A DNA stretch of 48,776 nt from an uncultured Clostridia bacterium (GTDB lineage Bacteria; Bacillota; Clostridia; Christensenellales; UBA1242): assembly GCA_944384425.1 (NCBI GenBank), contig CALWTI010000003.1, forward strand, positions 1 to 48,776. Reading direction: 5' to 3'. Position 1 is the first letter of the stretch; every line of letters begins with the position of its first letter. Made by a program: the position numbers and the translations under genes. The notes beneath the pieces were generated by a model, which ran no database searches, was not told where the DNA came from, and saw nothing but the letters and a program-made list of their open reading frames with translations. This document shows positions 41,359 through 48,776 of the stretch, in pieces.

Positions 41359-42384
41359 CTACCTAAGTTTTACTTTATCGGCCACACTGCGTCTTATATC
41401 TTCGCTCATTGCTGCATAGTGCTTTTTGGTTGTATTTACATCTTTATGTCCCAAAACTTCTGCAACAACATAAATGTCGCCGGTTTCACGATACAAATTT
41501 GTGCCGTAGGTGCTTCTTAATTTGTGAGGTGAAATCTTTTTAAGTGGCGAGGCGATTTTGCTATATTTTTTAACTAAGTTTTCAACTGCACGAGTTGTTA
41601 TTCGCTTTTTTTGAAGTGACACAAAAAGGGCATTTTCTTTGCTGTTTTCAAGCCATATTGCTCTGTCATCAAGCCACTTTAAAAGCGCATCTTTGACTTC
41701 ATCAGAAAAGTACAAAATCACTTGGTTTCCACCTTTGCGTGTAACTTTAAATGAGTTGTTGTCAAAATCAACGTCATTTATATTTATGCCCACGCATTCG
41801 CTGACACGAATTCCAGTTCCAAGAAACAGGCTCAAAATAGCAACATCTCTTGACCTTGTGTGCTTGTTATAAGCTTGTTGGCGTTTTGTCATATGGTCGG
41901 GACAATCTGCTTCATTGATGAGCTTTGCCACTTCATCGACTTCAAGGCGTATGATGTCTTTGCTATGTATTTTGGGTGTGTCAACTTTTGCTGCAACGTC
42001 GGTTTTTATATTGTCATTTTTAAAGTTGTATTTAAAAAAGCTCTTAATAGTCGAGATTTTTCTTGCTTTTCCTTTTTCGCCATTATGATAAGTTTTTCCG
42101 TTATATTCATAATAGGTAAGATAGCTCAAATACATTTCAATATCACGAATTTTCAAGCTTTCTAGGTCAGCAAATGTAATATCTTTTACATTTTTTTTAA
42201 ACACGTTGTTTGCTAAGTAATTGAAAAAAATTTCCAAATCTTTGCTGTAATTTAATCTTGTTAATGGTGAAGTGTAATTTTCAATTGACAAGAAAAAATT
42301 CAAGCAATAGTCGGGGAGTTTTTCAAGACTTTTACTTATTCCATTTTGACATTTAATTTCACGTTCTTTAACAAAATCACTCAT
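41359..42384 (-). CDS. Xer-family tyrosine recombinase (XerC/D/S-like)
   Basis: SAM-like N-domain (LTRLNYSKDLEIFFNYL); catalytic TGIRVSE, VTRKGGN, HKLRST and LGHKDVNTTKKHY. Confidence 0.88.
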   Translation of the reverse strand: MSDFVKEREIKCQNGISKSLEKLPDYCLNFFLSIENYTSPLTRLNYSKDLEIFFNYLANNVFKKNVKDITFADLESLKIRDIEMYLSYLTYYEYNGKTYHNGEKGKARKISTIKSFFKYNFKNDNIKTDVAAKVDTPKIHSKDIIRLEVDEVAKLINEADCPDHMTKRQQAYNKHTRSRDVAILSLFLGTGIRVSECVGININDVDFDNNSFKVTRKGGNQVILYFSDEVKDALLKWLDDRAIWLENSKENALFVSLQKKRITTRAVENLVKKYSKIASPLKKISPHKLRSTYGTNLYRETGDIYVVAEVLGHKDVNTTKKHYAAMSEDIRRSVADKVKLR

Positions 42385-42462: not shown

Positions 42463-43422
42463 ATGAAAAATCAAATTTTTTCTTTTGATAAAGCGTATAT
42501 TGAAACTTTTGCAAGAGGCGTAAGTTATTCATATGTTGAAAATGCTTATAGCATTTTTCTTGATATTTTAGATGAATCAATGCAAGCTATCACGAAATTT
42601 CGACCTGTTGTAACAGACTATAATTGCCAAATAGTAAATGAATGTTTAAACGATGCACAGCTTCAAAATTCAACACTTGATATTTTTATGAATATAAAAT
42701 CTCCACAACTTGAGCTTGGCTTAGTTAAACTAAACAAAAACTATATAAAAAAATGGTTTAACAAGTTAAAATTGGCATGGTCAAGCAATAAAAAACCAAA
42801 GAAAAAAAGATGGTGGCAAAGAAAAAATAAAACAAAAACCGACAAAAATGACGAAATTAAAATAGGCGAGAAATATGATTTTCAGGCATTTAAGAAACAA
42901 TTGATGCTTGAACTAGCAAAAAGATTTACACCAAAAACAACAATATATGTGTCAAGTTATGGTTTGCTTGTTCTTTGTAGCGAAGATTTGGGCATGGACA
43001 TAAATCTTTTTATATGTTTTTCAAATGGTGAAAAATACACTTTATTCAATGAGCTGACAATGAACTTGACTTACATTGAATTTAAAGATAGAGAAAAAAA
43101 TATTCACACAAAAAGATTAAGTACAAATGATAATTTTGTAAAAGCGCTTAGAATTTTCAATGGTTTGTATAGAAATATTTATTCAAAGCCATTAAATCAA
43201 ATTTTGCTAGAAAGTGTTTTGTATAATTGCCCAGATGAATTATTTGAAAACAATGCTTATGATATGTTTATAAAACTTATAAATTTTATAAATGTAAGTG
43301 CTATGCAAACTTTTAAATCAATAACAGATGACGAAACTTCAATAATAAAAAACAATTTAATACCACAAAGCGAAATTTATGATTTTGTGAACTTTTTAAA
43401 GAATTTGGCAAAATTACTATAA
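42463..43422 (+). CDS. Orphan 319-aa protein, possibly a degenerate nucleotidyltransferase fold with a polybasic insertion
   Basis: No SD. TTGACT-18-TATTAT ends 6 nt before the ATG, so the mRNA is possibly leaderless. Carries a KKPKKKRWWQRKNKTK insert. The C-terminal LLESVLYNCPDELF resembles NTase-family helices. Confidence 0.6.
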   Translation: MKNQIFSFDKAYIETFARGVSYSYVENAYSIFLDILDESMQAITKFRPVVTDYNCQIVNECLNDAQLQNSTLDIFMNIKSPQLELGLVKLNKNYIKKWFNKLKLAWSSNKKPKKKRWWQRKNKTKTDKNDEIKIGEKYDFQAFKKQLMLELAKRFTPKTTIYVSSYGLLVLCSEDLGMDINLFICFSNGEKYTLFNELTMNLTYIEFKDREKNIHTKRLSTNDNFVKALRIFNGLYRNIYSKPLNQILLESVLYNCPDELFENNAYDMFIKLINFINVSAMQTFKSITDDETSIIKNNLIPQSEIYDFVNFLKNLAKLL

Positions 43423-43445: not shown

Positions 43446-43473
43446 TATTCGCAAAAGCTGTCTTTTGTGAATA
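43446..43473. promoter_or_regulatory. dif-like 11-6-11 recombination site, left prophage junction
   Basis: TATTCGCAAAA-GCTGTC-TTTTGTGAATA; arms are 10/11 inverted repeats; identity with the copy at 48684 begins within the spacer. Confidence 0.6.
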
Positions 43474-43538
43474 TTTAAACATCTTTGACTGTATCAATGT
43501 AGTTTTCGAGCACTATTCTCATCAAATCGCTTGTTTTT
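43462..43538. repeat. Direct repeat, left copy (identical to 48700-48776)
   Basis: 77/77 identity at an offset of exactly 5,238 bp; the right copy is cut by the window end. Confidence 0.95.
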
Positions 43539-43618
43539 CTACGTTTTTCGCTTGCTAGTTGCTTGAAATTGTCTATTGTTTCTTGTTTTAGTCTAATACC
43601 ACAAAATACTTTTTGCAT
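43475..43618 (-). CDS. Ribbon-helix-helix (CopG/Arc-like) DNA-binding protein, 47 aa
   Basis: MQKVFCGIRLKQETIDNFKQLASEKRRKTSDLMRIVLENYIDTVKDV. Strand-helix-helix pattern; aaggagg SD 7 nt upstream; below the ORF-track cutoff. Confidence 0.75.
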   Translation of the reverse strand: MQKVFCGIRLKQETIDNFKQLASEKRRKTSDLMRIVLENYIDTVKDV

Positions 43619-43657
43619 TTATATACCTCCTTTTAATTAAATTTATTTGTTTAATTT

Positions 43658-43692
43658 TGTTAAACATTTTAACTATATATCATTGTTTAACA
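43658..43692. promoter_or_regulatory. Two TGTTWAACA palindromes in the RHH promoter region
   Basis: tgttaaaca at 43658-66 (inside GTTAAAcatTTTAAC) and tgtttaaca at 43684-92; a third copy lies at 48673-81. Confidence 0.5.
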
Positions 43693-43906
43693 TTTTGCCA
43701 ACAGTTTTTTCAAAAAATTTTGTTTGTTGCTCCCCTGCCCTACCCTAATAGTATAGCGCTTGCGCGTGGGGTATGGGGTTATTGACCCCATTAAAGCCCC
43801 AAATAACGCATTTTTAGAGCCTAGAACGAACGAAACGAACGCGGACGAGTAGTTATATACCCTCAACACTCTTTCGTGTGTTTATGAGCCTAAAAAAAGG
43901 CAAAGC

Positions 43907-44956
43907 TTAGTTTTTTCGCTTCGCCTTTTTAATTCTCTCACGTATGATATCCTCTTTTTGCATTAAATATTGCTTTTCTGTCAAGCTTGTGTTTTTTAAC
44001 ACCTTTTCTCTGTTCCATTTTGCCATAAATTTGCGCTGTTCTTTTATCTCTTCGATTTTCTCTGGGTTTTCTAGTTCGTATAACAAATCAAAATATCTTG
44101 GTGGCTTCGCTGATCTTACATTGCCCTTTCCGTCAGATAAGAAAATTTCGTCACTTTCATATATCAAGTCTTTGTTTTTTTCAAAGTAATTTTTGCCAAT
44201 GCCCGGCTTTCTTGACATTCTGACGAATTCAGGCACAAGCCCTTGCTTTTTATACCACTCTGCATCAATTCCCTGTTGTTTCTTCATAACATATCTAGCA
44301 GTATATGCGCAAGTTTCCCAACTTAACTTGCCAATAGATATTATGCCATTGCCCCAAAGTTCTTCTATGGCTTTAGATGTAAATATCTGGTCTTCTTGAA
44401 AATTCTTAAACATTGGTTTTTTGTCTGGAATAGGCATGTTGAATATCAACGCGTGATAGTGTGGCCTTTTTGTTTTGTCGCCATACTCTCCACATGCATA
44501 AAATCTTATGCCTGGGTTTGTATCTGTCTTTTTCCATCCGTATGTATACTCCCAATGCCGTCGCAACCGTTTAAAAAAGTTTTGCAAGTCCTTGGGCTGT
44601 AAAGTTCCCTTTATTGACTTTTCCCCGGTTTCTTTGTCAACATGTTCGACAGTGTGCAGATGTGCATCATCATAAGTGAGAGTTACAAAGTAATTTTCTT
44701 TCCACTGTTTAGCTTCTAGCATACATCTGTTGGCCCACGTCTTGGCATAGTCCATCCGACATCCAAGGCACTTACCACAAGGAACTTTAACTACTCTTTT
44801 TTCGAGCCAATCGTCAGTGATTTTTTCTCCGTAATAGTATTCTGCAACTATTAGCTCTGATGCTATTTTGCTTTCCGTTGTTATTATTAGCTTTTTCTTG
44901 CCACTTGGAAGAGTTAGCCCGGTATCACGCATAAGTAATGGATGAAAGCATGTCAC
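43907..44956 (-). CDS. Microviridae replication initiation protein (VP4/A-like, HUH)
   Basis: CGKCLGCR, YFVTLTYD, RPHYHALIF (HUH) and YTARYVMKK motifs; GTG start after ggagg. Confidence 0.92.
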   Translation of the reverse strand: MTCFHPLLMRDTGLTLPSGKKKLIITTESKIASELIVAEYYYGEKITDDWLEKRVVKVPCGKCLGCRMDYAKTWANRCMLEAKQWKENYFVTLTYDDAHLHTVEHVDKETGEKSIKGTLQPKDLQNFFKRLRRHWEYTYGWKKTDTNPGIRFYACGEYGDKTKRPHYHALIFNMPIPDKKPMFKNFQEDQIFTSKAIEELWGNGIISIGKLSWETCAYTARYVMKKQQGIDAEWYKKQGLVPEFVRMSRKPGIGKNYFEKNKDLIYESDEIFLSDGKGNVRSAKPPRYFDLLYELENPEKIEEIKEQRKFMAKWNREKVLKNTSLTEKQYLMQKEDIIRERIKKAKRKN

Positions 44957-45063: not shown

Positions 45064-45507
45064 TTATTTTAGCAATTTTAACAAACTGATTGCTGTGTTT
45101 ACAATGCTTGTTGGACTGTCTTGTTTTTTGCCGTTTGTGCTTGCAATACTTTTGACAAGTCCCGCGGCTGCATTAATGTTGTTAGCAAGTGATGCGCCAT
45201 GATTATTATTATTAGTGAATGCATTATTTCCACTTGCTGCCATTCCTGTTGGTGTGCTTGCGCCACCCTGTTGGAAGGCAAGCGCCGGGTTAAGCCCGGC
45301 CGCTTCCATGTCTTTAATTGCCCGTTGATATGATGTGTTGCTCATGTATTCTTCCCACTGTCTTTGTTTAAGCGCTTCTTGTGCGTTGAATTGGCGTGTT
45401 ATTTCTGCTTGTTCGGCATTGTACTGCCTTTCTTTTGCTGCTGTTCCAAAGCCTAGCCAATCCTTTATGTTTTCCCACGTACCTTGATTTTGATAGTTAA
45501 ACTCCAT
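45064..45507 (-). CDS. Microviridae DNA pilot/minor capsid protein (VP2-like, short)
   Basis: NTSYQRAIKDMEAAGLNPALAF motif typical of VP2; G/A/N-rich C-terminal half. Confidence 0.85.
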   Translation of the reverse strand: MEFNYQNQGTWENIKDWLGFGTAAKERQYNAEQAEITRQFNAQEALKQRQWEEYMSNTSYQRAIKDMEAAGLNPALAFQQGGASTPTGMAASGNNAFTNNNNHGASLANNINAAAGLVKSIASTNGKKQDSPTSIVNTAISLLKLLK

Positions 45508-45517
45508 AAATCACCTC

Positions 45518-47290
45518 TTAATTATGGTCAATTAGTCCTGGGATGCTGTACATTGGCATTGGCCTTGCTGCTTTTATTGAAAAGTAGAAGTCGCATGTAA
45601 ATTGGTCACTTACTGTACTTTGTACTGCCAATGTTTGGTCAATTGCTTCTGTTCCCTCGTCGTTAAATTCTTGGCTTAATGTAGGCAATGTTTCAAATTC
45701 TAGTCCGTAGTGCCAAATATTTCCATTTTTTTCCGCATTACTTCGTAGTTGACCTGTGATCAAGTTTGGGTTATATCTGTATTCTGCCCATGCCTCCTGG
45801 TAGCCGAACACTTCATTGTCTTTATTATTGTCTTCTTCTGTTTTTTGACTTCCTGCTTGAGTTATGTAAAGTTCTTTGTTTAATATAGGTTGTTCCCCAA
45901 TGTTTGCTAATGCTGGCCAATAATAGTCAAATCTTCTAGTCCTTGACCAAAGTTTGTTAATGCCTTGTTGGTAACTATTTACAACTCTTACACATGCTAG
46001 TCCAATTATGAACCCGTGCTCAGTGAAAGATTTTGTGAAGCTTCGATTACTCCCGGCAGTGTTTGAAAATGCTGCAGCATTTCCTTGTGGTGAATTTTCT
46101 GTACCTTCGCTTGTTTGTAGGACTTGCATCATGTTTATTGGACAACGTTTTCCGCCCAGGTACTCCGGCCTTTGTTGGCGCGCATCTGCTGACGTTACCC
46201 CGAAATTGCTTTTAATAATTTCGATATATCTAGTTCCTCCGCGCGCATCTTTTTCGAGTTGTCTTTGTACAGCAAAGGCAAGACGTATGTCATTTATGTT
46301 AATTGCTGTTGCATTTGTTAGGTCGGCTATCATACCGCTTAGATTTGGATCTGTTGTTAGTCCCATTATTGTTGGATTTGATGGCGCTGCGTTTACTGAT
46401 GTTATTTTATCTCCTGTGTTCTTTCTAGTTTCTTCGCTTGATGCATATAATCCTGTTATGCCGTTTTTGGCTGGCTCTGTTACTCCTTCTAGTATATTAT
46501 TTGTTGTTGCAGTTGCTGCTACTAAGTTCCATGTGTAGTCATTTACAGTTGATGCCCCTGGTGCTTCAAGTCCTATTGCTGTCCCATTTCCTATTACGGG
46601 AGCACTGTCTCCAAGTGGTATTGTTATTGGGCTACCTTTTTGTGGTTCAGGCAGTGCACTTGTAAAGTAGTCGTGTAATTTTGCCACCTTCAAACATTTT
46701 GTAGTTCCTGCTTGTACATATTTCGCTGTAGGGAATGCTATTATGTTGCCATCCACATTTTTTTGCACGTCTAGTGGTGCAATTATATTTTGGTTTCTGA
46801 ACCATTCATTGTAGATTAGTACATATCCTCTGAATGGTAGAGCGTTAACTCCTTTTTCTGGTCTTGTAATGTTTTGTAATCCTATGCACTTTTTTGTTGG
46901 AATTCCCATGTGGTCGCCGATGCTACCCGGTTCATATGTTGTTATTATTGTTGGTATCTGATATTCTGTCTCTTCTTCGTCCCATTCTCCCGTTTTATTT
47001 TCGCCCATAAATTCTGGCCAATGGTCCCAAACTAATCTGTTTGGTACAAAGAAATAATATAGGTCCAAGTATGCTGTATCCATAACCGGTTTTAATGGCG
47101 TATTCATACGAATAACATATCCGGTATCAATGTTGAATGTGTCCCCCGGTAATATTTCTTGTACGAGAATTGGGACTAATTCACCCTCATTAAAAGTTGT
47201 TTTGTGACCGTGACTTAGGTCGAATATGCTTCTTTTTATGTCCACATTTGGTAGTTTGCTAAAATGTAGTTCTGTGTTTCTATTCGCCAT
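45518..47290 (-). CDS. Microviridae major capsid protein (VP1/F)
   Basis: FSKLPNVDIKRSIFDLSHGHKTTFNEGELVPILVQEILPGDTF N-terminus; 590 aa; aggagg SD. Confidence 0.93.
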   Translation of the reverse strand: MANRNTELHFSKLPNVDIKRSIFDLSHGHKTTFNEGELVPILVQEILPGDTFNIDTGYVIRMNTPLKPVMDTAYLDLYYFFVPNRLVWDHWPEFMGENKTGEWDEEETEYQIPTIITTYEPGSIGDHMGIPTKKCIGLQNITRPEKGVNALPFRGYVLIYNEWFRNQNIIAPLDVQKNVDGNIIAFPTAKYVQAGTTKCLKVAKLHDYFTSALPEPQKGSPITIPLGDSAPVIGNGTAIGLEAPGASTVNDYTWNLVAATATTNNILEGVTEPAKNGITGLYASSEETRKNTGDKITSVNAAPSNPTIMGLTTDPNLSGMIADLTNATAININDIRLAFAVQRQLEKDARGGTRYIEIIKSNFGVTSADARQQRPEYLGGKRCPINMMQVLQTSEGTENSPQGNAAAFSNTAGSNRSFTKSFTEHGFIIGLACVRVVNSYQQGINKLWSRTRRFDYYWPALANIGEQPILNKELYITQAGSQKTEEDNNKDNEVFGYQEAWAEYRYNPNLITGQLRSNAEKNGNIWHYGLEFETLPTLSQEFNDEGTEAIDQTLAVQSTVSDQFTCDFYFSIKAARPMPMYSIPGLIDHN

Positions 47291-47717
47291 CTTTTACCTC
47301 CTGTTGTTTTGGTTGTTCGATTTTATAAGCTTTTAAAATATCTTGCTGAGTTATTTGCTCCCCGCTTATTATTTTTTCTTTTAGTTCTTCTGGCATAGCC
47401 TGGTATTTTTGCCCGGCATTTTGCGCCATTGCGTTTAGGTCATTAATGTTATTTGGTGTTATGGTGCTGTCACCGTAGTTAAGTGCTGGTTTTTTGTAGA
47501 GTACTCCCAAATCTCCATTTTTGAAGCGTTCAAGGATGTTGTATATCATTGTGTCTTCTTTGCCCTCTTGAATTTTGGCGTAAACGTTAACTTTGCCGGT
47601 TTCTTTGTAGTCAATTGACCCATCTTTGTTGGTTATGCGTTTAATTATTCTTCTAAATCCGTCTCCTGTTGCCCCTTTGCCTTGTTTTGGCGGATTTTGC
47701 ATTGTTAGAAATTTCAT
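47280..47717 (-). CDS. Microviridae internal scaffolding protein (VP3-like)
   Basis: Position upstream of and overlapping VP1; EDTMIYNILERFKNGD resembles the VP3 DINxIxxxFxKTG segment. Confidence 0.7.
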   Translation of the reverse strand: MKFLTMQNPPKQGKGATGDGFRRIIKRITNKDGSIDYKETGKVNVYAKIQEGKEDTMIYNILERFKNGDLGVLYKKPALNYGDSTITPNNINDLNAMAQNAGQKYQAMPEELKEKIISGEQITQQDILKAYKIEQPKQQEVKDGE

Positions 47718-47738: not shown

Positions 47739-47858
47739 CTATAAATAAGCTCTTTCTATTGATTGTAGTATTCTGATTGCTTCAAGTGGTTTTATTTTGT
47801 TTTTAAATAGAATTTTTGTAATTTCTTCTATAATTTCAACTGCTTTTTTTTTATCCAT
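47739..47858 (-). CDS. Small phage ORF (39 aa), not in ORF track
   Basis: MDKKKAVEIIEEITKILFKNKIKPLEAIRILQSIERAYL; ATG directly follows the upstream stop; ggtgag SD. Confidence 0.5.
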   Translation of the reverse strand: MDKKKAVEIIEEITKILFKNKIKPLEAIRILQSIERAYL

Positions 47859-48116
47859 TTACTCACCTTCTTTTATAATAAAGTCATTTGCTTTAGCAAT
47901 ATATTTTGGTTGGGTTGCTGTAATCTCTCCTGTCTGGTCGTTGTACTCGCCCATTGTCCACAGCTCTTTGTCGTCTGGATAAGTGTTGACTTGGTTTGGC
48001 TGTTGTGCTTGTGCCATTCCGCTAAATGCTCTTACTGCTACCGCGTCATTTTGCATCACAAAAGGTGCTGTAAATCCTATTTTTGTATCTTTTATTGCAT
48101 ATATTTTACTTATCAT
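47859..48116 (-). CDS. Conserved-looking small microvirus protein (85 aa; VP5-like?)
   Basis: IYAIKDTKIGFTAPFVMQNDAVAVRAF N-terminus resembles small gokushovirus-type proteins; gaggag SD. Confidence 0.7.
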   Translation of the reverse strand: MISKIYAIKDTKIGFTAPFVMQNDAVAVRAFSGMAQAQQPNQVNTYPDDKELWTMGEYNDQTGEITATQPKYIAKANDFIIKEGE

Positions 48117-48226
48117 TTTTTTATCTCCTCTATTTTTGTTTGATTTTTTAAAATGCCCTTTGGGTCTTTTTTCTTTAATATTTTTGGCTTGTAAATTTCT
48201 TCAAGCCATTTTTGAATTTTATTCAT
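48113..48226 (-). CDS. Small basic phage ORF (37 aa), not in ORF track
   Basis: MNKIQKWLEEIYKPKILKKKDPKGILKNQTKIEEIKK; ATGA overlap with the next gene; weak SD. Confidence 0.4.
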   Translation of the reverse strand: MNKIQKWLEEIYKPKILKKKDPKGILKNQTKIEEIKK

Positions 48227-48326
48227 TTTTTAATCTCTAGTTATAGTCTTATGCCTCCCCTGTTAATATTAGGGTCAACATTGACTTTTTTTGTTTTGCG
48301 TGCTGTTCTTGAAAAAATTTCGCTAT

Positions 48327-48638
48327 CTATTCGTTTTCTTGTTTTACTGCGCATCTTTCAATCTCCTTTTTTAAGTTTTTTTGAACTGATTTTGTTATGT
48401 ACGTTCCTAGGTCGTCTTTTATTGCGTCTAGTACGAAATTAGTTATTCTTGTTGTACTTGCTGATGTTCCTAGCAAGTTCTTTGCTTGTTTAATGTAAGT
48501 AGGCAATGTCTTTGCTATGTTTGCTACTGTTTCAAGTGTGTTTTTGTTTTTTAGTTTTATCATAATAATTAAGTATACAAACATACTAAGTGCGTTAATA
48601 GCGACTGTCCCTATACTTACCCAATTTTCAATACTCAT
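48327..48638 (-). CDS. Phage single-TM membrane protein (103 aa)
   Basis: Strong aggagg SD; N-terminal TM IGTVAINALSMFVYLIIMI; first gene after the att site. Confidence 0.75.
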   Translation of the reverse strand: MSIENWVSIGTVAINALSMFVYLIIMIKLKNKNTLETVANIAKTLPTYIKQAKNLLGTSASTTRITNFVLDAIKDDLGTYITKSVQKNLKKEIERCAVKQENE

Positions 48639-48683
48639 ATTACCTCCTTTTTTGTTAAATATTGAATAACATTGTTAAACAAA

Positions 48684-48711
48684 TATTTTAAAAAGTTGCC
48701 TTTTGTGAATA
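48684..48711. promoter_or_regulatory. dif-like 11-6-11 site, second copy (attP-like or attR)
   Basis: TATTTTAAAAA-GTTGCC-TTTTGTGAATA. Right arm is identical to the 43446 site; left arm matches 8/11; spacer differs at 2 of 6 positions. Confidence 0.55.
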
Positions 48712-48776
48712 TTTAAACATCTTTGACTGTATCAATGTAGTTTTCGAGCACTATTCTCATCAAATCGCTTGTTTTT
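48700..48776. repeat. Direct repeat, right copy (identical to 43462-43538), truncated by the window end
   Basis: Covers the 3' 62 nt of an RHH-gene copy plus 15 nt downstream. Confidence 0.95.

Follow-up and report, generated by a model that had tools for sequence, protein, structure and literature searches.

On rolling-circle and plasmid replicons, small ribbon-helix-helix (RHH) proteins such as CopG of pMV158 and ORF56 of pRN1 regulate the cop-rep operons that encode them, as recorded for the PDB and NCBIfam entries of these names. In the Vibrio phages that count among the integrative mobile elements exploiting Xer (IMEX), a repressor gene is found beside a dif-like phage attachment site (attP), an arrangement termed a ‘lysogeny module’ (PMC12715192). 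In descriptions so far, temperate microviruses are carried passively by the host Xer system, and term searches of the key papers on them turned up neither a repressor nor a dedicated regulator (PMC3091885; PMC7062461; PMC9239249). Microviruses of Gram-positive hosts were first noted only in 2022 (PMC9239249), and a literature search found no paper linking RHH or CopG proteins with Microviridae. The locus described here lies in a 48,776-nt stretch, hereafter the window, of contig CALWTI010000003.1 (GenBank assembly GCA_944384425.1) from an uncultured Clostridia bacterium. Positions 1 to about 43445 of the window are low-GC bacterial chromosome, and the sequence from 43463 on is a gokushovirus-like microvirus with a genome of 5238 nt, all genes of which are on the minus strand and which occurs both integrated and as a circle. 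One of its genes, here called rhh, encodes a 47-amino-acid RHH protein next to a dif-like site, and this product is most likely the phage’s own transcriptional repressor, a kind not described for this virus family.

The rhh gene

The rhh gene occupies positions 43475–43618 on the minus strand and encodes MQKVFCGIRLKQETIDNFKQLASEKRRKTSDLMRIVLENYIDTVKDV. An earlier note, prepared from the letters of the window and a list of its open reading frames (ORFs), had pointed to this 47-amino-acid ORF, which exists at these positions with exactly the translation quoted. The note had also claimed a strong Shine-Dalgarno sequence, and AAAGGAGG (43626–43633, minus strand) is indeed present 7 nt 5′ of the ATG and is invariant in the circular contig L002 and in the relatives L003 and L006. 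The note is equally correct that no other phage gene stands between rhh and the dif-like site: the stop codon (43475–43477) is separated from that 28-bp site (43446–43473) by 1 nt.

Random ORFs of 47 codons are common in AT-rich DNA, and 111 ORFs of at least 30 amino acids overlap the 36–48.8 kb portion of the window; the reality of rhh therefore rests on other evidence. The same ORF is called on other public contigs by independent gene-calling pipelines, and relatives are found at 94% and 74% identity. The pairwise ratio of non-synonymous to synonymous substitution rates (dN/dS) against relatives is 0.13–0.19, with dS reaching 1.1. Syntenic homologues, in the order Rep, RHH and dif-like site, are present in 16 microvirus genomes, which supplies the conservation among related phages that the earlier note had named as a check. 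In addition, the empty chromosomal site L015 lacks rhh and the circular form L002 has it, so that rhh is a phage gene, not a host gene. The ORF, the profile and fold of its product, the dN/dS values and the syntenic homologues together indicate that rhh is a real, conserved gene under purifying selection.

Fold of the RHH protein

Seven aligned syntenic homologues were compared with the Pfam family RHH_1 (PF01402), and all seven match at E<=1, with a best value of E = 1.9e-9; the homologue L318 reaches 26.4 bits. The protein matches a PHROG ‘Arc-like repressor’ family with E=4.5e-4. A profile built from this protein family aligns end to end with ORF56 of pRN1 (E 0.003) and with CopG in the PDB. 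The padloc library holds no match for the protein.

An AlphaFold2 (AF2) model based on a 10-sequence alignment has a predicted local distance difference test (pLDDT) score of 90.2, and consists of an extended segment (residues 1–11), a helix (12–24), a turn and a second helix (29–46). DSSP calls no strand in this model, the model being a monomer. A model obtained with the three closest sequences only, a single long helix with a pLDDT of 80, was uninformative and is superseded by the 10-sequence model. When the latter was searched against the PDB with Foldseek, almost all of the top 50 matches were RHH proteins, with template modelling (TM) scores of 0.6–0.86. These include ORF56, the PutA RHH, CopG–DNA complexes, Arc, AmrZ, SvtR and RHH antitoxins, with pRN1 ORF56, CopG and Arc as the best structural matches.

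Because the profile matches, the AF2 model and the Foldseek results agree, the predicted membership of the 47-amino-acid product in the RHH superfamily (CopG/Arc/MetJ) is sound. The pattern of a β-strand followed by two helices, which the earlier note had read from the sequence, agrees with the AF2 model and the Foldseek matches. The protein presumably forms dimers and binds DNA.

Promoter, putative operators and transcription unit

A sigma-70 scan places the promoter of rhh, P(rhh), at 43672–43701 on the minus strand, where a −35 element TTGGCA (43696–43701) is separated by an 18-nt spacer from a −10 element TATAGT (43672–43677). No other sigma-70-like site on the gene strand of the phage scores 10/12. 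The equivalent of P(rhh) is the best or tied-best sigma-70-like site of the coding strand in 10 of 12 genomes, the −10 element ending 38–57 nt before the ATG. The −35 element is polymorphic at 43698, reading TTGGCA in the window and in L002, and the consensus TTGACA in L001 (run X1), a contig that spans the left phage–host junction (attL).

The −10 element of P(rhh), the phage’s only strong promoter, is bracketed by two 9-bp palindromes, designated O1 and O2. O1 (TGTTAAACA, 43684–43692, minus strand) is located inside the spacer, at −74 from the ATG, and O2 (TGTTTAACA, 43658–43666, minus strand) 5 nt downstream of the −10 element, at −48. The position of O2 (−48/−49) is conserved in L006, L003, mar32 and bajarodmic 527. 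A third palindrome, O3 (again TGTTTAACA, 48673–48681, minus strand), is found 2 nt beyond the degenerate arm of attP and 34 nt upstream of a gene for a 103-amino-acid protein. TTWAACAA boxes likewise cluster at the rhh promoter region and in the region past attP, with TTAAACAA near O2 (43647–43654) and TTTAACAA near O3 (48652–48659), both on the minus strand.

The palindrome TGTTWAACA occurs three times in the 5.2-kb phage where 0.19 occurrences are expected (P about 0.001), and all three are non-coding and confined to these two regulatory regions. When nine genomes are combined, a motif that the rhh promoter region shares with the sequence past the dif-like site scores above every one of 1000 shuffles; in single genomes the shuffle tests are weak. 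The earlier note had left the choice between a lysogeny repressor and an excision directionality factor. The TGTTWAACA sites are non-random and stand at operator-like positions, which favours the repressor.

The palindromes also appear to change together with the protein. They occur at equivalent positions in the relatives, and outside the regulatory regions of rhh each is nearly absent from the genome that carries it. Where residues 5–9 of the β-strand read F-x-G/A-x-R, as in the window, L006, L003, mar32, bajarodmic 527 and Alces, the palindrome is TGTTWAACA; a strand with x-S-x-R is paired with TGTAWTACA (L012, L023), and one with x-C-x-R with TGCAWTGCA (L017, L020). The genome L326, obtained later, combines Cys at position 7 with TGCAATGCA boxes and so matches the last of these pairings. 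Comparison of the genomes thus suggests that the palindrome covaries with β-strand residue 7 (G/A, S or C). In the register of the profile alignment this residue corresponds to a DNA-facing position in the β-strand of CopG, for which the DNA-contact positions are established.

An intrinsic terminator is predicted at the end of the Rep (VP4) gene (43888–43930, minus strand; RNA fold −17.2 kcal/mol, z −4.3, followed by U7), and RNA folding gives no comparable hairpin between rhh and the next gene. As P(rhh) is the only strong promoter and the terminator comes only after Rep, rhh would be the first gene of a genome-length operon in the circle. At the attL end of the prophage, P(rhh)-rhh is complete and faces outward.

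In the intergenic region between Rep and P(rhh) (43705–43906, minus strand), some blocks do not vary among L002, L003 and L006; TTTAGGCTCATAAACACACGAAAGAG and the GGGGTCAATAACCCC hairpin are examples. Between L002 and L003, the synonymous sites of rhh are near saturation (dS about 1.1) while the intergenic blocks are unchanged. This region is probably the replication origin. A candidate LexA site (Cheo box) in its GAACGAAC-rich stretch (43828–43848) was rejected, as it is not palindromic and not conserved in L003.

Linkage of the gene to a dif-like site

Homologues are carried by GenBank genomes from rodent, marmot and moose faeces, namely Dipodfec UOA04_Rod_907, Sigmofec UA08Rod_6125 and mar32, with bajarodmic 400 and 527, Peromfec RodF8_36 and Alces MP12 5423 microvirus as further carriers. 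In these entries the protein is annotated ‘hypothetical protein’ or left unannotated; the automatic UniRef label for mar32 is ‘RHH CopG domain-containing’. The other RHH members come from Logan and ENA contigs of at most 5.9 kb, and one from a contig of a metagenome-assembled genome (L244). The gene order is always Rep, an intergenic region of 250–350 nt, RHH, a dif-like 11-6-11 site and an ORF of about 90–150 amino acids.

In the first set of RHH-positive genomes, the dif-like site is located 3–33 nt past the RHH stop codon in 13 of 13 cases. Among genomes added later, it is at +28 nt in L327, and the best-scoring site of L326 is at +88 nt. Three related RHH-negative genomes have no dif-like site, and a fourth has only a weak match on the other strand. 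In MG945312, also RHH-negative, a dif-like site follows a 72-amino-acid ORF with a weak RHH_1 match. The co-occurrence of RHH and dif-like site gives P=0.0016 by Fisher’s exact test, in a sample that is small and non-random.

With E<=1e-3 as the limit, an exhaustive HMMER search returned 678 representative proteins, of which 27 (50% identity clusters) reach E<=1e-10. The ten closest new representatives are all on contigs of at most 5.5 kb, and the closest relatives with contigs checked are on contigs of at most 5.6 kb in 12 of 12 cases, several of these being short fragments. A VP1 search of IMG/VR found no relatives. Two half-site scans of IMG/VR for the dif-like site returned mostly chance matches, with an RHH gene beside the site only in L105; L038 and L140, from the same scans, carry a perfect host-type dif. 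In L105 (4495 nt), the RHH and the Rep C-terminus stand at opposite contig ends, and circularising the contig would bring them into one frame. A Rep-RHH fusion was discarded, since it depends on this artificial circular wrap, and the lack of the usual 250–350-nt intergenic region makes it more likely that the contig is incomplete. Judged by the integrated copies and the matching dif, the hosts of the RHH-microvirus clade appear to be Clostridia.

Attachment sites and the host recombinase

Empty sites are available from other samples in L015, which comes from a 286-kb contig, and L016, both of which carry the identical flanking host gene of 319 amino acids without the phage. They give the bacterial attachment site, attB, as TATTCGCAAAA-GCTGTC-TTTTGCGAATA (8984–9011 in L015), the 11-nt arms of which are perfectly palindromic. 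The intact attP, TATTTTAAAAA-GTTGCC-TTTTGTGAATA (48684–48711), is phage sequence throughout, with a degenerate left arm, and recurs without change at the junction of the circular contig L002. Between attP and attB, 2 of the 6 central positions differ. When compared with both, attL, TATTCGCAAAA-GCTGTC-TTTTGTGAATA (43446–43473), has its left arm and centre from the host and its right arm from the phage, with T at 43468 where attB has C. This combination of host arm, host centre and phage arm places the crossover at the border of the centre and the rhh-proximal arm.

The locus coincides with a switch in both GC skew and gene orientation. The same palindromic-arm site (TATTCGCAAAA-N6-TTTTGCGAATA) is present in at least 120 Clostridia species (loci L198–L317), which include, among the matches listed, Christensenella, Ca. 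Stercoripulliclostridium, Lachnospiraceae and Defluviitaleaceae. By its sequence and setting, attB is the host chromosomal dif. The host gene for an XerS-like tyrosine recombinase (41359–42384, minus strand; Pfam Phage_integrase 1.6e-34) is located 1.06 kb from dif/att. Its best NCBIfam match is XerS, with 190 bits and below the cut-off of 267. Homologues of this recombinase are found near dif in 58 of the 120 Clostridia loci fetched, at a median distance of about 700 nt (about 0.3–2.4 kb). The host dif and its linked recombinase resemble an Xer system of the XerS/difSL or XerH/difH type, and there may be only one recombinase. At this locus lexA adjoins xer.

Between xer and dif is an ORF of 319 amino acids (42463–43422, plus strand, 27% GC). 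It is present at the empty site and is therefore a host gene; its weak matches are to CD-NTase C-terminal and anti-phage nucleotidyltransferase/cyclase families, and it is possibly a defence gene parked beside dif. A relative with an RHH 74% identical (L003/L005, ENA/Logan contigs) is integrated beside the orthologous CD-NTase-like gene of 320 amino acids, its attL being TATTCGCAAAA-GGCAAC-TTTTGCGAATA. Integration at the equivalent locus implies that this phage clade targets it repeatedly. As in IMEX, attP is dif-like and agrees with the host dif, the phage integrates at the dif of the chromosome, and no integrase was found among the phage ORFs.

Proposed function and alternatives

The reading favoured here, at a probability of roughly 0.6, is that rhh encodes a small dimeric RHH transcriptional repressor of a temperate, Xer-exploiting microvirus in a Clostridia (Christensenellales-like) gut bacterium. 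RHH dimers would bind O1 and O2 and so repress P(rhh), and with it all phage expression. This repression would extend to incoming phage, conferring immunity along with CopG-like dosage control, while dimers at O3 would block transcription into the late genes. Recombination at attP by the host XerS-like enzyme would cut the operon directly after rhh, and for this reason P(rhh)-rhh would be kept intact at attL. The replication and structural genes would then be promoter-less at the opposite junction, attR, and guarded by O3, until excision reconnects the late genes with their promoter.

A bolder version, in which rhh acts as a one-gene lysogeny switch, is possible but tentative, with the odds clearly against it. 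Here, integration would sever the genes from the only strong promoter, and RHH at O3 would both insulate them from host read-through and bias the XerS-like recombinase, giving directionality without an excisionase. If true, this would be a new route to true temperance for an integrase-less 5-kb single-stranded DNA (ssDNA) phage in Gram-positives.

Several observations weigh against a repressor. The window protein on its own scores 15.2 bits with Pfam RHH_1, below the cut-off of 20.5, and as a 47-amino-acid RHH it has no sensor domain, nor is any induction route visible. O1 is missing in L006, the spacing of 26 bp between the centres of O1 and O2 is unusual for cooperative RHH tetramers, and the sigma-70 scan yielded no convincing conserved promoter overlapping O3, so that O3 might serve as a roadblock, in weak promoter control or in an Xer-related role. 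In a chicken-gut run (X2) the circular joint was assembled, with a depth of 15–18x for the phage against ~3–5x for the host. The phage is 3–5 times more abundant than the host, with the circular junction in the same samples, and so repression would be leaky or many cells would be producing phage. No attR was seen, the look-up of the 103-amino-acid protein returning only the circular contig, and the second phage copy that starts at the end of the window may therefore be a tandem prophage or an episome. Furthermore, a search for RNA-seq or metatranscriptome runs containing the phage found none.

The protein might instead govern only copy number and expression in the manner of CopG and ORF56. In a carrier state it would determine how much Rep is made and how many copies of the replicative form exist, with no specific role in lysogeny or immunity. 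These plasmid copy-control proteins are its best structural and sequence matches, and the circular form is abundant. In addition, a probable origin is followed by the promoter and rhh, with rep in the same transcription unit, which mirrors the dso-Pcr-copG-repB layout of pMV158. Such a role is unlikely, however, in view of the strict co-occurrence of RHH and dif-like attP in the sampled genomes, where three related RHH-negative genomes are without the site; this ties the gene to the temperate lifestyle rather than to replication in general. O3, moreover, adjoins attP in most genomes.

Less likely again is an accessory or directionality factor for Xer recombination, in which RHH at O3 would recruit, block or orient the XerS-like recombinase, and so promote integration or else prevent or trigger excision by attL x attR. 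The adjacency of gene and attP is conserved across the genomes examined, and an operator copy is 0–2 nt from the distal arm in about six of nine. The attP has one degenerate arm and a non-homologous centre, a situation in which TLCphi is reported to need XafT (PMC6744903; PMC9226527). The distance from O3 to the arm nevertheless varies from 0 to 19 nt, and the location of two palindromes out of three at the promoter points to transcription. As for the excision directionality factor of the earlier note, the evidence for it is one operator copy 2 nt from the degenerate attP arm. To our knowledge, no known Xer activator is an RHH protein.

NikA and TraY are RHH partners of HUH relaxases, and the homologues match NikA-like (L320, E 1.3e-4) and TraY (L244, E 7e-4) proteins. 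By analogy, the RHH protein could be a Rep accessory at the origin, bending DNA by the hairpins and aiding nicking by the HUH Rep or rolling-circle termination, and the boxes do lie 60–100 nt from strongly conserved GC-rich hairpins. This is highly improbable, as it is the −10 element and not the hairpins that the palindromes bracket, the putative origin is distant from O3, and most microviruses replicate without any such protein. Almost no credence can be given to the view that the product is an orphan RHH of antitoxin type, or that the ORF is spurious or has no function, since the weak matches to RelB-like and CopG_antitoxin families come with no toxin partner, and purifying selection, conserved synteny, and a promoter and Shine-Dalgarno sequence conserved in 16 genomes argue against a chance ORF.

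Organisation of the phage genome

The phage genes on the minus strand, taken from ORF and profile scans, comprise Rep/VP4 (43907–44956), the pilot protein VP2 (45064–45507), the capsid protein VP1 (45518–47290), the scaffold protein VP3 (47280–47717), a 39-amino-acid ORF (47739–47858), an ORF5-like gene (47859–48116), a 37-amino-acid ORF (48113–48226), a VP8-like ORF of 37 amino acids (48241–48354) and a hydrophobic ORF of 103 amino acids (48327–48638). The last is the first gene after attP. It has a hydrophobic N-terminal segment and no significant Pfam or PHROG match. It may be a membrane protein or serve in lysis, and its expression would be under the control of O3. In the relatives, the first ORF after attP is always about 90–150 amino acids long and without a significant family match. 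No XafT-like second gene was found, the small phage ORFs having been only partly scanned against Pfam.

A direct repeat (43446–43538 and 48684–48776) with a spacing of 5238 nt reaches the end of the window in its second copy, and the last 76 nt of the two copies are identical. The second copy includes the 3′ 64 nt of a second rhh (48713–48776, minus strand), cut by the end of the window and contig. Along the window, host sequence is followed by attL, one full phage, an intact attP and the beginning of a further copy; the long repeat thus reflects tandem or circular re-entry into the phage, not a duplication of att. The earlier note placed the 3′ end of rhh within the repeat; taken literally this is correct, but the repeat had been misread, as the true att core is 28 bp long and does not overlap the ORF. 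The contig ends 76 identical nt into the repeated phage sequence, as expected from a k=77 de Bruijn assembler closing a loop. The public contig L002 (5268 nt) is identical to the phage at every stretch sampled, and its terminal overlap of 30 nt indicates a circle of 5238 nt, in which rhh is followed by the gene for the 103-amino-acid protein.

Comparison with known systems

Like CopG (pMV158) and ORF56 (pRN1), which are its top profile and fold matches (2k9i, 1b01/1ea4), the RHH protein belongs to the size class of 45–55-amino-acid stand-alone RHH proteins. As with them, its gene is promoter-proximal in an operon with the replication initiator, and palindromic sites, putative operators in its case, overlap its own promoter. 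Unlike theirs, the element that carries rhh is a virus in which all structural genes stand between rhh and rep, and an Xer site comes directly after rhh, followed by a further putative operator copy.

The RHH fold and the phage origin of the protein are shared with Arc and Mnt of P22 and with the ‘Arc-like repressors’ of C. difficile phages (phrog_3180, E 4.5e-4); the mar32 homologue is 52% identical over 40 amino acids to proteins of phiC2, phiMMP03 and CDKM9. Those proteins are accessory regulators in tailed phages of 40–55 kb that have CI-type repressors and integrases, whereas here the RHH protein is the only recognisable regulator of a 5.2-kb ssDNA phage.

With the temperate Microviridae that integrate at dif, namely the Bacteroidetes proviruses and enterogokushoviruses, the phage has in common the dif-like flanks, the use of host Xer and the existence of circular and integrated forms (PMC3091885; PMC7062461). 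In term searches of these two papers no repressor or regulator came up, and a module of RHH, operators and attP is absent from them. A whole gut microvirus clade (27 clusters at 50% identity, E<=1e-10) carries this conserved module of regulator, putative operators and attP, which offers a concrete, testable answer to how lysogeny is controlled in a 5-kb phage. It also provides what appear to be natural variants of protein–operator specificity, with G/A, S or C at β-strand position 7 set against TGTT, TGTA or TGCA half-sites.

The closest parallel in layout is the module of the Vibrio IMEX phages (CTX-type inoviruses and dif-type PM2-like phages), which is made up of the repressor RstR or P16, XafT or P15, and a dif-like attP. 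There too the phage has no integrase, attP is beside the repressor gene and the prophage starts with that gene (PMC12715192). The present module differs in that no XafT-like partner was found and in the fold of its putative repressor, which is RHH. It further differs in belonging to the Microviridae and in its Gram-positive Clostridia host, where the system exploited by the phage is a palindromic-arm dif with a linked XerS-like recombinase.

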